Below, piece by piece: positions 17,275 to 27,269 of a stretch of 64,000 nt of DNA. A model generated the notes under the pieces. It ran no database searches. It was not told the origin of the DNA and saw only the letters and a program-made list of their open reading frames with translations. The first letter of the stretch is position 1. Each line of letters begins with the position of its first letter. Origin of the DNA: a virus; the IMG/VR virus record IMGVR_UViG_3300045284_000330, positions 10,157 to 74,156 of that record. One strand, written 5' to 3'. Both the position numbers and the translations under genes were made by a program.

Positions 17275-17431
17275 GACTTACCCCTCCGATCGGGAAATTG
17301 GGAACTTGACAGTTAAGCGCCGCTTGCCGGCGTCCGTCAAGCGTCAAGCGTCTTGTTAACCGTGGAGTGAAGCCGTGCTTTACACGCAAGACGACATTCG
17401 CTTTAGAAATCAGGACGGGAGCCAATTGGGC

Positions 17432-18163
17432 ATGCTTGAACCGACGACGGCTGAGATGACGACGACGATCGGGCATCGTTTGCGCCTAGTGCGCGAGGCT
17501 CGCGGCCTGACCCCGGGGGATGTCGCGGCCGCCTGCGAGGTCTCGCGGCAGGCCGTATCCCAATGGGAAGCCGACAAATATTCGCCAAACATCGCCAACC
17601 TGGAGAAAGCCGCGGCGCGGCTCAGCGTTTCCCTCGAATGGCTGCGCACCGGGCGCGGGCCGCCGCCCAATCTGCGCCCCATCGTGCCAGTAGCCGGCCG
17701 GGCGACCGAAGAGCCCGCCGCGGCCACAGCGCCAAAGCCGATGCCGCCGCCAGTGCCCCCGTTCCCTGACATGGTCCCCGAGCAAGCTATGGGCATCGGC
17801 TCGGGGCCGTTATTGTTGGATGGCAGAGTCCATGATTGGTGGAAACTTCCGGCCGGCTTCGTCCATGAGACGTTGCGCACATCGCCCCCGTATCTCGTCG
17901 TGCTGCGCGTGCTCAGCGACAGCATGGAGCCGGTAATAAAATTGCACGACCACGTCATCATCGACCGCGGCGACGTGATGCCGGTCGACGGCAAAATTTA
18001 TGCCATCGACAATGGAACGAGCGTGATCCTGCGCCGCATCTTCCTCGCCGGCGACAAGGTGATCTTGCGTTCCGACCGCGATCCCGACAAGGACGTGATC
18101 GAGATCCCGCGCGACGACGTGCGCATCATTGGGCGTTGCGTGGTGGCGATCGTGGTGACCTGA
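17432..18163 (+). CDS. CI-like repressor (XRE HTH plus S24-like domain)
   Basis: RLRLVREARGLTPGDVA...VSRQAVSQWE; RVLSDSMEP. Confidence 0.88.
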   Translation: MLEPTTAEMTTTIGHRLRLVREARGLTPGDVAAACEVSRQAVSQWEADKYSPNIANLEKAAARLSVSLEWLRTGRGPPPNLRPIVPVAGRATEEPAAATAPKPMPPPVPPFPDMVPEQAMGIGSGPLLLDGRVHDWWKLPAGFVHETLRTSPPYLVVLRVLSDSMEPVIKLHDHVIIDRGDVMPVDGKIYAIDNGTSVILRRIFLAGDKVILRSDRDPDKDVIEIPRDDVRIIGRCVVAIVVT

Positions 18164-18514: not shown

Positions 18515-19366
18515 TTGCGCGTGACGCCACTCGCCTTCGAGTTGATGCGCGATCTCACGACGCCGTGCGCCCTTCACGTGCGAGATTATCGGGATTGGTC
18601 TGGCCGTGAACCGCTGAACGATAAGGCCTGCCGAGCCGAACTATGGAAGGCGGCGAACGAAAGTCAATTTTTTGAGCTATCCGCAATCGCGTCGCTTTGC
18701 GAAGAAAGCGGCGAAAAGATGCGTGCGTATTACGAGAATTCTCACAGGTGGAATAGTCGGCTCGCATTCCTGCCTGCAGTCAAAACGTGGATCGAATTTG
18801 ATTTTGGCGTAGATCGGCAAGCTTATTGCCTCGATAGCGGTGATGATCCACTCGGAACTGCACATTTTGCGATAATCGCACGCAGACCACATCAGCCATG
18901 GACTTTCTGGCGACTCGGGGACATCGGAATGGTGAAATCCGAAGAAAAACCACATACTCTCACCTGCAACGCTGACAACGGAAAACGCAAGGGCGAAGCG
19001 TCCGAGCTGCAGTTCTTGGTCTACGCCGCGCTCGCCTTCATCAATTCGCCTCGCATCATTGGTCGACGGCAGCACATGCCGCATGAGAGAGCCGAACGCG
19101 AACGGTTAAAATCGCGAGGGCTCGCAGGCAAGTTTCCATTGCGCGCGTGGACCGAGATCATCCTCAAGGTGATGCCGCCCGACGACAAGACTGGCGAACC
19201 CTCGCAAGAGGCGCACCTGACCGGCGAGCGCTGCCTACATTTCGTCCGCACGTTTTTGCGCGTGCGCCTCGGCCAGCTCGAGTATGTGAATTGCCATTGG
19301 CGCGGCGACCCAGCGCTCGGCATGAAGCGGTCGCGGTACATCCTGCGGCCAGAGGAGCGCGCATGA
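18515..19366 (+). CDS. Phage hypothetical protein
   Basis: Long ORF ending LHFVRTFLR..G..EYV..HWRGDP.LG. Confidence 0.6.
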   Translation: MRVTPLAFELMRDLTTPCALHVRDYRDWSGREPLNDKACRAELWKAANESQFFELSAIASLCEESGEKMRAYYENSHRWNSRLAFLPAVKTWIEFDFGVDRQAYCLDSGDDPLGTAHFAIIARRPHQPWTFWRLGDIGMVKSEEKPHTLTCNADNGKRKGEASELQFLVYAALAFINSPRIIGRRQHMPHERAERERLKSRGLAGKFPLRAWTEIILKVMPPDDKTGEPSQEAHLTGERCLHFVRTFLRVRLGQLEYVNCHWRGDPALGMKRSRYILRPEERA

Positions 19367-20322
19367 TCGAAACGTTTGACATCACCGGGCGCCACGATCT
19401 GTGGTCCGAATTGCGCAAGGGCCAGGTGACGGCCAGCGCGGTCGCCGCGCTGCTCGACGCACACCCGTTTATGTCGCGTCTCGGCCTCCATCTTTTGAAG
19501 TCTGATTTGATCGCCGAGGACCCGGAGGAGACCGCGCCGATGAAACGCGGGCGGTTACTCGAACCAGTTGCCGCGCAACTGCTAAGCGAGCTTCGGCCGA
19601 ATTGGAAAATACAGTATCCGGTTGGGCTTTATTTCCGCGATACGGAGGCGAGGCTCGGGGCGACGCCGGATTGTTTTGCAACAGACGAAAACGGCAAGTT
19701 GGGTGTTGTCCAATTCAAATCGGTCGAGGAGACCTTTTTCAGGCGCCTCTGGCGCGACGAAGACCGCGCGATCTCGCCGCCGCTCTATCCGGTGATTCAG
19801 GCAATCACCGAGGCATATCTGACCAGCGCGAGCTGGGCCGCGGTCGCCGCGCTTGTGATTGGTTTCGGCGTCGAACTTCACATCGTCGAAATTCCCATTC
19901 ACGCAGGCGTCATCGATCGGATCAAGGCCGAGGTGCGCGAATTTTGGGACCGCATCGAGCGGAAGGACCCACCGCCGGCGGACTACGCTCGGGACAGCAA
20001 ACTGATTGCAAAACTATTCCCAGAAAGCGACGGGCACATTATCGACCTGTCTTCCGATAATATGCTGCCGGAACTCGCCGTCCAGGATCGCGCTTTGGCT
20101 GACGAGATCAAGGAACGAAAAGAACGCCGCGAGGCCATCAAGAGCGAAATCCTGATGAAGCTCGGAACGGCCTCGGGCGCGACCTTTCAGGGCGGCCGCA
20201 TCACGGCGAACACCGTTCACCGCAAAGCTTATACCGTCGCTGCAACCGCATATCGAGATCTGCGAATAAAGCTCGAAGATCATGGAGGACCGCATCATGG
20301 AAGTGAAATGCATCGAGGTTAG
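19363..20322 (+). CDS. YqaJ-like viral recombinase exonuclease
   Basis: W..LR...VTAS, RGRLLEP, LGATPD, QFKS. Confidence 0.85.
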   Translation: MIETFDITGRHDLWSELRKGQVTASAVAALLDAHPFMSRLGLHLLKSDLIAEDPEETAPMKRGRLLEPVAAQLLSELRPNWKIQYPVGLYFRDTEARLGATPDCFATDENGKLGVVQFKSVEETFFRRLWRDEDRAISPPLYPVIQAITEAYLTSASWAAVAALVIGFGVELHIVEIPIHAGVIDRIKAEVREFWDRIERKDPPPADYARDSKLIAKLFPESDGHIIDLSSDNMLPELAVQDRALADEIKERKERREAIKSEILMKLGTASGATFQGGRITANTVHRKAYTVAATAYRDLRIKLEDHGGPHHGSEMHRG

Positions 20323-20635
20323 GGATCATAATACGTTTCTCCCCGTGATCTGCATCCGCCCGGTTCCGACGAATGCGGAGCAGCGCTATCTCCTGCGGCG
20401 CGATGGGTATCGCGGGGACGCGACGGAGCGCTGCATCATCATGATCGACGCGCAGTGCCGCGGCGTTTCTTACGATCCCTATGACTGGCAAGGTGACAAC
20501 AGAACCAAGCCGGTGGCGCATAATTTCATCGCAGAGCATTGGGATGATTTGCGGGATGGCGATGTCGTGGATGTCGCGTTTATTCTCGGCGAAGCCGAAG
20601 AACGAAAGATCAGCGAGCGCGAGGAAGCAGTTTGA
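20297..20635 (+). CDS. Phage hypothetical protein
   Basis: IEVRD..TF.P...YLLRR.GY...DPYDW...RT...AH..I..HWD.L.DGDVVDV.FILGE. Confidence 0.65.
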   Translation: MEVKCIEVRDHNTFLPVICIRPVPTNAEQRYLLRRDGYRGDATERCIIMIDAQCRGVSYDPYDWQGDNRTKPVAHNFIAEHWDDLRDGDVVDVAFILGEAEERKISEREEAV

Positions 20636-20793
20636 GACCTGGCAAGGCAGGACTTGGCGCGGCGAGGCGAGGCATGGCAAGGCGGGGCCGGGCAAGGCTT
20701 GGCGAGGCATGGGGCCGTATGGCCGGTTCAGTTTCAGTTGGGCGGGGCAAGGCACGGCGTGGCAGGGCAAGGTAGGGCACGGTTTTTACCGTG
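20636..20793 (+). ncRNA. GGY-NN pentamer repeat array with terminal hairpins (candidate guide-like RNA)
   Basis: 14 pentamers at 20641-20710 (13 GGC, 1 GAC), hairpin GGCC-GTAT-GGCC at 20713-20724, 9 GGY pentamers at 20741-20785, hairpin CACGGT-TTTT-ACCGTG at 20778-20793. Confidence 0.65.
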
Positions 20794-20811
20794 AAAACGG
20801 AGCAAACAGCT

Positions 20812-21804
20812 ATGAACGAGATGCCAAATCAGGTCGCCGTCTTTCGACACGAATTGCAAAACATGGAACCGCAGTTCGCCGCGGCACTGCCGCCGCATAT
20901 CACCGTTGCGCGTTTTGCGCGCGTTTTACAAACCGCCGTCCAGAACAATCCAGACCTGCTCTACAAATGTGACCGTCGGTCGCTCTGGAACTCCGCGATG
21001 AAGTGCGCCCAGGATGGGTTGGTCGCCGACAATCGTGAGGCCGCCATCGTTGTTTATGGTGACCAAGCTCAATATCTCCCGATGATTGCTGGACTCCGCA
21101 AGAAGGCGCGCAACTCTGGCGAGATCGCGACGTGGGATGCGCAGGTCGTTCACGCCAAGGACGCATTCGAATTCGAGCTTGGCGACGAACCGTTTATCCG
21201 GCACCGGCCTTGCCTCGACGAAGACCCGGGGCCGGTGAGGGCGGCATATTCGGTCGCGGTGCTCAAGTCCGGCGAAAAATCTCGTGAGGTCATGTCGGTG
21301 ACCGCCATCGAAAAGGTGCGCGCGCGCTCACGCGCTAAGAAGGGCGGGCCGTGGTTTACCGACTATGAAGAGATGTGTCGGAAGACCGTGGCTCGCCGGC
21401 ATTCCAAAGTCCTACCAACTTCGGTAGATATCGACACTCTCCTGCAGCGCGATGACGACCTCTATGATCTTAAGACCGGTGCCGGCGATGGCGGCATCGC
21501 GCCAGGCGAAAAGCCGCGGACGCTCGCCGGCCGCCTCGACGCCTTGGCGGGGCCAGTCCGAGAAACCGTCCTGGCATCTCGGGAACACCGCCAGGACGGC
21601 GACGAAGGGGCGGGCGCGGGGGACGCAGACGGGGCGCCCGCCCCCGCACAGAATTCCGCTGTGGACCTTCAGCCGCCTGCATCGGCGCAGGCCGCAGGCT
21701 CGGCGAGCCCGGCGAAGACGCCCGCGGCCGACACCACCGAGGCGCGCGCATACCGGCCGGGAACCGGTGGCGCGCGCCTGTCTGATCTCGATGTGGGGGA
21801 ATGA
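20812..21804 (+). CDS. recT: RecT family ssDNA-annealing protein
   Basis: ALPPHI...RF.R...CAQDGL...M..GL...ARNSGEI...PW..DYEEM.RKTV.RR.SK.LP. Confidence 0.9.
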   Translation: MNEMPNQVAVFRHELQNMEPQFAAALPPHITVARFARVLQTAVQNNPDLLYKCDRRSLWNSAMKCAQDGLVADNREAAIVVYGDQAQYLPMIAGLRKKARNSGEIATWDAQVVHAKDAFEFELGDEPFIRHRPCLDEDPGPVRAAYSVAVLKSGEKSREVMSVTAIEKVRARSRAKKGGPWFTDYEEMCRKTVARRHSKVLPTSVDIDTLLQRDDDLYDLKTGAGDGGIAPGEKPRTLAGRLDALAGPVRETVLASREHRQDGDEGAGAGDADGAPAPAQNSAVDLQPPASAQAAGSASPAKTPAADTTEARAYRPGTGGARLSDLDVGE

Positions 21805-21807
21805 CAC

Positions 21808-22803
21808 TTGGCCCGTCGCATTATCACTCGTGAGAAAGCTCGTCGCATTATCACTCGTGAGGAAGCCATCCAGGCGGGGGCTAAATACTACTTCACTGGC
21901 AAGCCATGCAAGCGCGGGCACTTAAAACGCTATGCCAGCACTACAAGATGCGTAGAATGCACTCTTGCTGGCTGCCGGCTGTATGAGAAGATGAACGCAG
22001 ATAAGGTTAGAACATGGGGTAGATTATACCGGCAAAAGAACCTGGCCAAATTGGCAGCGTACCACCGGCGCTGGTACCAAAAAAATCGCGAGACACTTAG
22101 TGTTCGAGGTAAATTATATCGGCAAAAAAACGCGGATAAGATTAAAACACGCGACCGGCTGTATCGAGAACAGAATCGCGATAGTTTGAAAGCCTACCGG
22201 AAGAAGAATGCTGATAGGCGAAAAGCGCGCTACCGTGAATGGTGGCTAAAGAATTTGGATAAGAATAAGGCGCGCCGCAGATTGTACGTCCAAAAGAATG
22301 CGGAAAAGATTAGAGAACGCCGGCGGCTCCAGAGGCAAAAGAGTGCGGACCAGCGCAGGGCATACAGGCAATTGTATTATGAAAAGAACCGCGTAAAGAT
22401 TATTGCTGCCAATCGTCTGTATTTTAAAGAAAATGCGGAAAAGATTAGAGAACGCCGGCGAGTGCACAGACAAAAGAACGCGGATAAAATCAAGGCGGCT
22501 CGGTCGGCGTACCGCAGAAAGAATCATGACATCCTCGTCGCATACAATCGGCGATATCATCTGGTGAATAATATTGCCGTTACCGCGCTGAGACAATTAG
22601 GAATTGAAATGTCGGCAGTGGGGCGCGGCCATCGCGGCAGCTTTGCCGCGGCCGCGCTGAAGCAGTTGGGAATTAAACTCAGGGAGGACGACAATGTTAG
22701 GCGAACGAAGCCCGCTGCAGCTATTGACCAATTTGATCGAAGAGGAGCCCACCGCGGATCAGGATACGATTTACCACAAGTGGCGAGCAAAGATCGCCGA
22801 TGA
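21808..22803 (+). CDS. HNH-family N-terminal Zn domain plus long basic helical repeats, no nuclease domain seen
   Basis: YFTGKPCKRGH...CVEC followed by many YRQKNADKIK-like repeats; AT-rich. Confidence 0.6.
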   Translation: MARRIITREKARRIITREEAIQAGAKYYFTGKPCKRGHLKRYASTTRCVECTLAGCRLYEKMNADKVRTWGRLYRQKNLAKLAAYHRRWYQKNRETLSVRGKLYRQKNADKIKTRDRLYREQNRDSLKAYRKKNADRRKARYREWWLKNLDKNKARRRLYVQKNAEKIRERRRLQRQKSADQRRAYRQLYYEKNRVKIIAANRLYFKENAEKIRERRRVHRQKNADKIKAARSAYRRKNHDILVAYNRRYHLVNNIAVTALRQLGIEMSAVGRGHRGSFAAAALKQLGIKLREDDNVRRTKPAAAIDQFDRRGAHRGSGYDLPQVASKDRR

Positions 22804-26013: not shown

Positions 26014-26358
26014 ATGATTGAGCGCAAGCGGGAACGCGGCACCATCAGCGACGCCATGGGCATTCTCGGGATCGACAAGGCCCGGACCATCGAGGCCATG
26101 GCGGCCCGCGGGATCATTCCCAGCGCGGCCAAGATCGGCCGGCGGTGGACGTTCAATCTCGCCGCGCTTCGAACATTTGTGAAGGATCAGGAGCGCGAGG
26201 CATGGCAAAGAAGCGAAAGGCACCCAAGGGCTGTTATTGGGTCGGGGATGTCCTCTACGGGCGCACGCGGATCAAGGGCAAGCTGGAACGGATCGCACTC
26301 GGAACAGATAATCCGGCGGTGGCGGTCGGGCGCCGGAAAGCATGGCACGAAAGTCTGA
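26014..26358 (+). CDS. Excisionase-like HTH protein
   Basis: AMGILG...TI..MAARG.IP.AAKIGRRWTF; operator at 25971-25987. Confidence 0.7.
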   Translation: MIERKRERGTISDAMGILGIDKARTIEAMAARGIIPSAAKIGRRWTFNLAALRTFVKDQEREAWQRSERHPRAVIGSGMSSTGARGSRASWNGSHSEQIIRRWRSGAGKHGTKV

Positions 26359-27269
26359 TCGCCGGCCGGGTATGGGGCGACGATGAAAAGACGTTCCCCC
26401 AGGTCGTCGAAGTGTGGGAAGCGTCCTACATCGCCGGCGACCGCTCGGCCGGCCCAAACACCGTCAAGCGCTACAAAGTGAGCCTCGGGCAGATCATGCC
26501 CATCATCGGCGACCGGCCGGTCAAGGCGGTCGACGCCAAGCTGATCCGCGAGGTCGTCGACGCCCGCCGCGCCGGCGGGGCGACCAACGCGACGCTGAAG
26601 CGCGACCTCGTCGCTCTGTCGAGCGTCATGAACTGCGCCGTCGCCCGCGAGTGGATCGACGCCAATCCGGTGCTGCCCCGGATGAAGGCGATCGTCGAGA
26701 AGCGCGAGCCGATCAATCTGCCGCGGCCAGCCGATGTCGAGCGGGTGATCGAGCGGGTGCCCGGTATGCTCAAGCAGCTCGTGCGGGCCGCAATCGTCAC
26801 CGGCTGCCGTCTCAATGAGCTGGTGACGGCCAAGCGCGCCGACATCGATCACGAGCGGGCGACCCTGACCGTGCTGGGCAAGCGCAACAAGCGGCGCACG
26901 ATCGAGCTGGCGCCGATGGGCGGGTATGAGTTGATCCGGTCGCTGCCGGTCTTCGCCGGGTCGCCCTATGTTTTCTGGCACCACGACGGCAAACCTTATC
27001 GAAACCTGTCGGCCCGGTTTGCTTGGCTCGTGAAGGAAACCGGCGAGCTGGCGGCTGCCGAGGGGGTCGACTTTGCCCCGTTCTGTTTCCACGATCTGCG
27101 GCACCTGCACGCGACCCACTACCTGCATCAGGGGATCGACAATCTGTGGGTGCTCTCGAAGCGCCTCGGGCATACCTCGACCAAGGTGACCGAGCGCTAT
27201 TTGCACGAGCTGAGCGAGGTCGAGGCAGCCGCGCAAATCCGCAAGGTCCAGCGGAGGAAGGCCGGATGA
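26202..27269 (+). CDS. int: Tyrosine integrase
   Basis: TGCRLNEL (R), GKRNK (K), FHDLRH, LGHTS..VTERY. Confidence 0.95.
   Translation: MAKKRKAPKGCYWVGDVLYGRTRIKGKLERIALGTDNPAVAVGRRKAWHESLIAGRVWGDDEKTFPQVVEVWEASYIAGDRSAGPNTVKRYKVSLGQIMPIIGDRPVKAVDAKLIREVVDARRAGGATNATLKRDLVALSSVMNCAVAREWIDANPVLPRMKAIVEKREPINLPRPADVERVIERVPGMLKQLVRAAIVTGCRLNELVTAKRADIDHERATLTVLGKRNKRRTIELAPMGGYELIRSLPVFAGSPYVFWHHDGKPYRNLSARFAWLVKETGELAAAEGVDFAPFCFHDLRHLHATHYLHQGIDNLWVLSKRLGHTSTKVTERYLHELSEVEAAAQIRKVQRRKAG

Follow-up and report, generated by a model that had tools for sequence, protein, structure and literature searches.

Two putative solo VIPR guide RNAs inserted in tandem before recT in a temperate phage genome with no detected vipr

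The window analysed here is a 64,000-nucleotide stretch of viral DNA, bases 10157–74156 of a single-contig virus record of 74,156 bp; features are numbered from the first base of the window. The locus is the early region and recombination operon of a temperate phage. Gene order is a cI-like repressor (17375–18163), a 283-aa ORF (18515–19366, + strand), a gene for a YqaJ/RecE-like exonuclease (yqaJ, 19366–20322, +), a 117-aa hypothetical gene (20282–20635, +), the array described below, recT (20812–21804, +), genes of unknown function and an integrase (26145–27269). To judge from its homologues, which point to Alphaproteobacteria and there to relatives of Bradyrhizobium and Rhizobium, the carrier is probably a GC-rich temperate phage of that group. 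The ORF that follows recT (331 aa, 21808–22803, +) contains many degenerate 'YRxKN'-type repeats and starts with a perfect 27-bp tandem duplication (tandem repeat 21814–21866). It matches only PHROG families of unknown function, and the closest relative of the phage differs in this region.

The array occupies the gap between the stop codon of the 117-aa ORF (20633–20635) and the recT ATG (20812). It was read directly and by cutting the sequence into pentamers in all five phases. Tract A (20641–20710, +) has 14 pentamers, 13 of which start with GGC and have the form GGY-NN, while unit 3 is GAC-TT. Its 3′ tail (20711–20740, +) is composed of GG, a GGCC/GUAU/GGCC hairpin (20713–20724) and a U-rich stretch of the TTCA type. 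In tract B (20741–20785, +) all nine pentamers are GGY-NN, seven with GGC and two with GGT, and their phase is that of tract A. By direct reading, the tract-B closing hairpin, CACGGU/UUUU/ACCGUG, lies at 20778–20793 (+), and its 5′ arm is formed by the last two repeat units. It is followed by an A-rich spacer, GGAG (20799–20802) and the start codon of recT. The original prediction described a strict GGY-NN lattice over the entire gap. Our reading agrees for the two tracts, where GGY is kept in 22 of 23 units, and departs from it at unit 3 and in the spacer 20711–20740, which is not itself on the lattice. The spacer is 30 nt long (6 × 5 nt), so the register does continue across the first hairpin, as had been proposed. 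Both hairpins are where they had been predicted, and the predicted NN lists of the two tracts were reproduced exactly.

GGY runs of this length are exceptional in the record. The longest runs here are 13 and 9 units, compared with at most 5 for any other run on either strand of the whole 74,156 bp; the best run had a mean of 4.2 and a maximum of 6 in 100 first-order Markov simulations of the record. No second GGY-NN array was found when both strands of the record were scanned. The 23 units hold 10 distinct NN dinucleotides, and NN entropy is 2.84 bits in tract A and 2.50 bits in tract B. A slippage microsatellite or a short translated repeat could be suspected, since Tandem Repeats Finder (TRF) gives periods 5, 10 and 15 at the array and short ORFs cross the region. 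We consider this explanation extremely improbable. True microsatellites, such as the (GGCAA)n-type repeats in our own reference data, have an NN entropy below 1 bit as compared to 2.5–2.8 bits here. As for translation, repeats of 5 nt shift the reading frame from unit to unit, the longest ORFs that stay within the gap have 46–56 aa, and the whole segment is missing from relatives. Two longer ORFs across the gap (163 and 189 aa) also run into the flanking genes, either in another frame or on the opposite strand. A search of the array interval against Rfam gave no match.

Comparison with related phages indicates how the array came to lie here. In the closest relative (L001/L142), whose flanking proteins are 89% and 80% identical to those of the window, the stop codon of the 117-aa gene overlaps the recT ATG; the array is therefore an insertion. 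The segment without BLAST alignment to this relative spans 20626–20833 (+) and contains the insertion, which is about 165–200 bp long. No arrays were present in any of the 14 loci fetched by homology to the 117-aa protein (L001–L005) or to RecT (L142–L150). The exact flanking proteins are found on 8–11 contigs according to cluster look-ups, and the same C-terminus, a product of the insertion junction, recurs in P0007, a variant with 95% identity to the 117-aa protein. Like the array, the 283-aa ORF immediately 5′ of yqaJ has no counterpart in L142 and is an insertion relative to it. A search for attP in the genome of L005, a MAG, gave no match. A short imperfect inverted repeat brackets the insertion (20626–20640 and 20800–20811, AGCAGTTTG ... 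CAAACAGCT) and pairs in the minimum free energy (MFE) fold. It could be due to chance or be a trace of cassette insertion.

The position of the array raises the question of a cis-acting recT leader, that is, a G-rich, mostly unstructured element, possibly with two-tetrad G-quadruplexes, that would tune translation or stability of the recT mRNA and have nothing to do with Vipr. The array indeed abuts the recT ribosome binding site (RBS), and the second hairpin lies 6 nt before GGAG. However, close RecT relatives do without such a leader and have the upstream stop overlapping the recT ATG. The array folds no better than shuffled sequences (z = −1.2), and an identical tail is found beside vipr in unrelated phages (see below). 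A recT leader is thus very unlikely, if slightly less so than the microsatellite.

The link to VIPR suggested in the original prediction is real: three bioRxiv preprints of 2026 cover Vipr, the GGY/NN vrRNAs and solo vrRNAs. The protein of a VIPR system, Vipr, is a small RAMP protein encoded beside its vrRNAs, usually together with an accessory gene, vap; the vrRNAs consist of 9–16 YNNGG (GGY/NN) repeats and a structured 3′ tail, and their NN dinucleotides pair with DNA, one base being skipped per unit (10.64898/2026.04.26.720920). By the definition in the preprints a vrRNA has no fewer than 4 YNNGG / GGY-NN pentamers in tandem, typically 9–16, in which GGY is fixed and NN hypervariable. It is approximately 100 nt long and co-purifies with Vipr, and internal degeneracy of repeat units is normal in working vrRNAs. 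One Vipr protomer binds each repeat, and the filament and R-loop grow from the tail end in the 3′ to 5′ direction (structural companion preprint). Pseudoknot and hammerhead are the tail types named in the preprint. Solo vrRNAs occur on satellites and in hundreds of vipr-less phages. They are recognised by GGYNN units, by a tail of the kind found on a VIPR+ element, in these cases one matching the tails of a VIPR+ phage, and by a carrier without vipr or accessory genes (10.64898/2026.10.15.759431). Experiments in E. coli satellites have demonstrated that they act in trans; satellite solo vrRNAs redirect Vipr, and multi-copy decoy sites are actively targeted (10.64898/2026.10.15.759431).

For a reference set we scanned IMG/VR for a pattern of nine GGC-NN units in a row and obtained 120 loci with 385 arrays. 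In SUSP1 (KT454805) the arrays flank two genes, coding for Vipr (195 aa, ALH47069) and Vap1 (146 aa, ALH47068). One ORF cluster of about 211 aa occurs in 80 of the 120 array loci, or in 86 by its HMM, and represents Vipr because this HMM matches SUSP1 Vipr with an E value of 2e-48; another cluster matches Vap1. The tracts of the window resemble the reference arrays in every feature compared. Unit number in the reference set has a median of 12 (quartiles 10–14) as compared to 14 in tract A and 9 in tract B, and the median NN entropy of the 385 arrays is 2.73 bits, between the values of the two tracts. In the Y position C outnumbers T about 12:1, and the window tracts are likewise mostly C. The NN composition of the window is 8.7 bits likelier under the population NN frequencies than under uniform ones. 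Seven reference arrays with an NN entropy below 1 bit are plain microsatellites of the (GGCAA)n type.

The surroundings of the reference arrays are varied. In 34 of the 120 array loci the fetched DNA contains no Vipr, with several of the arrays many kb from either end. VIPR+ loci commonly have arrays that stop just 5′ of the following gene's RBS. One VIPR+ phage, L090, has arrays immediately 5′ of a recT whose product is 38% identical to that of the window, so placement 5′ of recombination genes is not unique to our phage; the order there (L090:10300–12143, − strand) is vipr, staggered arrays, a 176-aa gene, more arrays and recT. Some vrRNA tails contain a stem-flanked motif similar to a tRNA T-arm, GGTTCGAnnCC (L017:3781–3840, L028 on the − strand after the arrays, L033:5467–5520 and L098:1480–1540). 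ARAGORN finds no full tRNA in L017, L028 and L033 and an odd 93-nt tRNA-Pro in L098. The T-arm-like motif may be a processing signal distinct from the pseudoknot and hammerhead types.

The strongest tie between the window and genuine VIPR loci is the tail of tract A. In a short-word BLAST search of the interval against the 120 loci, the array and its tail aligned to L084. The 14 nt 3′ of tract A (20711–20724) are identical (14/14) to vrRNA tails of L084 and its sibling L042, and among some 190 loci compared the tail GGGGCCGTATGGCC stands directly after an array only in L042, L084 and the window. Four vrRNAs of L042 and L084 terminate in GG plus a hairpin with a 4-bp stem and a GUAK loop. The tails identical to the 14 nt of the window belong to two of them; in the remaining two the stem has changed in a compensatory manner (GGCU/AGCC and GUUC/GAAC). 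A TTCA-rich stretch trails all four as well as the tail of the window. An exact-pattern search with the tail and two bases past the hairpin gave no matches, L042 and L084 being different at those bases. Tract B closes with a small hairpin that is different from the tails of this clade.

L042 and L084 are VIPR phages in their own right. The gene after their leader arrays codes for a 222-aa protein with 26% identity to SUSP1 Vipr (E 3e-18), and in L042, where vipr lies at L042:1749–2417, the GDWRP G-loop aligns with that of SUSP1 Vipr. The flanks of the L042 and L084 arrays are 96% identical while the NN are different. Their layout is vrRNA–tail–vrRNA–RBS–vipr as compared to vrRNA–tail–vrRNA–RBS–recT in the window. 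G+C content is similar (0.60–0.63 in L042 and L084, 0.61 in the record). Outside the array no protein or DNA similarity between these two loci and the 74-kb record was detectable.

No effector was found on the carrier itself. The Vipr-cluster HMM, based on 80 proteins, gave a best E value of 1.3 against the six-frame ORFs of the 74-kb record. With hhalign, the best probability for the Vipr alignment against its 329 ORFs of 100–450 aa was 1.2%, compared with 99.9% for the SUSP1 Vipr control. Phmmer with SUSP1 Vipr found no match in the record, and tblastn with Vipr and Vap of L042 gave nothing. The original prediction saw no RAMP-like ORF in the window, and for Vipr these searches extend that to the whole record. 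Because no Vipr was found there, the array is a solo array at the scale of the record and not a complete VIPR system. Two of the options put forward earlier, an orphan guide or an effector encoded outside the window, are supported by this result and by the identity of the tract-A tail with L042/L084 vrRNA tails.

A third option, an unrecognised partner such as the product of 20297–20635, finds no support. The gene concerned is the 117-aa gene, which has a homologue in all five loci fetched with it (L001–L005), none of which has an array, and we reject it as a dedicated partner. The protein has no Pfam or PHROG match and a weak OmpA-like sequence match in the PDB (E 0.013); the best fold match of its model (pLDDT 69) has a Z score of 3.5 and none is RAMP-like. 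We also rejected the 283-aa ORF. Its family numbers over 650 hypothetical proteins, with records from Bradyrhizobium, Rhizobium and Rhodobiaceae among them, and at 41 IMG/VR loci of the family no array and no Vipr lies within 5 kb. The best match of its AF2 model (pLDDT 77) is the anti-CRISPR AcrVA2 (7ci1_A; Z 7.4 over 169 residues, next 4.5), not a RAMP. Neither Foldseek nor a profile search against PDB sequences returned a match for this ORF, and sequence profiles do not confirm the likeness to AcrVA2. The structure predictions of these two nearest unknown proteins, a check suggested with the original prediction, hence returned no RAMP fold.

From these comparisons we consider it probable that the interval encodes two tandem solo VIPR guide RNAs on a cassette of about 200 bp, carried by a phage without vipr. 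GGY-NN units, a tail of VIPR+ type and a record with neither vipr nor vap are all found here. The first RNA, vrRNA-A, would consist of 14 units and the short hairpin tail; the second, vrRNA-B, would have 9 units and run into the RBS of recT. The RNAs would be transcribed with the + strand early operon and then processed. Co-transcription and processing is the likeliest route since no promoter of its own was seen for the array, a promoter scan having found no sigma-70-like site 5′ of it, and since the first array of L042 similarly begins a few bases after the stop codon of the upstream gene. The tract-A tail scores as a weak terminator-like site, and the tract-B hairpin is not terminator-like because it has no U-tract. 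In many Vipr-less arrays of IMG/VR a −10-like TAnnnT box lies 6–10 nt 5′ of the array start, and a GC hairpin closes the array (L021, L037, L041, L056, L082, L101, L113, L115, L133 and L134). By their sequence they resemble self-contained genes for solo guides, in contrast to the promoter-less cassette of the window.

Vipr would come in trans from a phage of the L042/L084 type that co-infects the cell or resides in the same host. Each Vipr protomer would hold one GGY and present the NN, and the resulting filament would bind double-stranded DNA, skipping one base for each NN, and silence it. Alternatively, the RNAs might only divert the Vipr of a rival away from this phage.

We searched for targets with the published conversion, in which each GGY is replaced by one wildcard base, and a threshold of at least 80% NN identity. 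At this threshold the scans gave no target in the record, in the 1.55 Mb from related and VIPR+ loci, in IMG/VR with the exact patterns, in metagenome contigs with a relaxed exact pattern or in 401 genomes from the phylum of the L005 MAG. The best whole-guide scores in the record, 17–18/28 for tract A and 14/18 for tract B, are equal to those of shuffled guides, and scores in the 1.55 Mb are at chance level only. The exact tract-A pattern has no match in IMG/VR; the exact tract-B pattern matches one family of phages with 40% GC, about what chance gives for 18 fixed bases. In metagenome contigs the relaxed tract-A pattern matched only an rsmG-like gene of bacteria with 46–48% GC. The 401 genomes gave no target match with up to 3 mismatches.

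A nine-unit match to the phage's own yqaJ is the only candidate target signal above chance in our comparisons. The near-target (20095–20120, +, codons LADEIKERK) agrees with the NN of tract-A units 3–11 at 17 of 18 informative positions. Read in the coding frame, the NN fall on codon positions 1–2 and the skipped bases on wobble positions. Unit-shuffled guides reach the same ungapped local score in 1.5% of trials when the whole record is searched (P 0.015) and in 0.07–0.1% of trials when the search is limited to 2 kb on each side of the array (P ~0.001). The whole tract-A guide scores 17/28 at this site. Self-silencing is not expected because the match is broken in the three tail-proximal units of tract A. 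The own copy of yqaJ plausibly escapes, as the mismatched units sit where, by analogy with the published complex, growth would start.

One possible meaning of the match, doubtful in our opinion, is that the cassette is a weapon-plus-immunity pair directed against the yqaJ alleles of rival phages with a Vipr borrowed from an unrelated phage lineage. A bolder variant would have the guides somehow templated from neighbouring coding DNA. The reading based on rival alleles was not supported when homologues were compared. Among the 120 YqaJ homologues listed, none fits the 14 codon classes of the guide better than the phage's own clade (8/14), and L001, which has no array, has the same yqaJ site with the same 17/28.

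The main rival of the solo-guide explanation is a non-functional relic. A fragment of an L042/L084-type leader, a vrRNA together with the array after it, would have landed in front of recT by illegitimate recombination and be carried passively, never meeting a Vipr. Several of the results above are in line with this: the record is without vipr, the cassette is missing from all fetched relatives, the scans found no target, and the array has no promoter of its own. Signs of wear could be seen in the degenerate unit 3 and in a tract-B hairpin unlike the tails of the clade. On the other hand, GGY is intact in 22 of 23 units and the 14-nt tail has not decayed at any position (14/14). Degeneracy inside the repeats is usual for working vrRNAs according to the preprints, and activity of solo vrRNAs in trans is established for E. 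coli satellites (10.64898/2026.10.15.759431). Moreover, several contigs, with at least two variants of the protein, have retained the insertion junction. We therefore regard a relic as unlikely.

The absence of a convincing target in the scans would also fit an anti-VIPR decoy or sponge. Such RNAs would have no meaningful DNA target and would soak up or misdirect the Vipr of a rival, as do the solo vrRNAs of satellites. Redirection by solo vrRNAs has a published precedent (10.64898/2026.10.15.759431), and the tail retained here is of the cognate type. But the published case needed active targeting of multi-copy decoys, and competition alone was insufficient by the authors' design (10.64898/2026.10.15.759431). 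A decoy would also be a sub-case of the main explanation and not a separate kind of element. It seems to us distinctly improbable, more so than a relic.

Taking the array as a pair of solo guides, the closest known systems are the solo vrRNAs of F5 satellites and of VIPR-null members of the SUSP1 family (10.64898/2026.10.15.759431). They likewise combine GGY-NN units and a VIPR+-type tail with a carrier that has no vipr or vap, and they likewise reside on a mobile element that would meet Vipr only in trans. The differences are several. The published solo vrRNAs come from Enterobacteriaceae whereas the window phage is GC-rich and temperate with Alphaproteobacteria-like homologues. The tail of the window is a 4-bp GUAU hairpin whereas that of SUSP1 is a pseudoknot. 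Here two guides stand in tandem inside a recombination operon, and our scans gave no target. The array is also not the remnant of a vipr–vap deletion in an otherwise VIPR+ lineage, as the carrier shares no genes with the tail-owning VIPR+ phages. Canonical VIPR loci (SUSP1, KT454805, and L042/L084) have the same repeat unit, the same range of unit number and the same C-rich Y as the window, and L042/L084 share also the tail and the vrRNA–tail–vrRNA–RBS–gene layout. In canonical loci, however, vipr follows the leader array; in the window recT follows, and no vipr or vap is present within 74 kb.

Virus-borne mini-CRISPR arrays use the Cas proteins of the host or of a rival, the guide being carried without an effector on the virus. 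The window array resembles them in that its guides are presumed to use machinery encoded elsewhere in a conflict between viruses. It differs in its 5-nt lattice, its noncontiguous code and the protein family involved, and no acquisition machinery is known for it.

VIPR and solo vrRNAs are known already, and on the sequence data the window array is best read as a further solo example, with the L042/L084 type of tail. It is best read as newly inserted into the recombination operon of this phage. The finding would extend solo VIPR guides from phages and satellites of Enterobacteriaceae to a GC-rich temperate phage, probably of Alphaproteobacteria. Because the tail belongs to VIPR phages that share no genes with the carrier, our results suggest that guide cassettes may move independently between phages and be used against or with the effector of another phage. 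Tail identity makes L042-type Vipr the candidate partner of this RNA, and the near-match in yqaJ points to a candidate class of targets.
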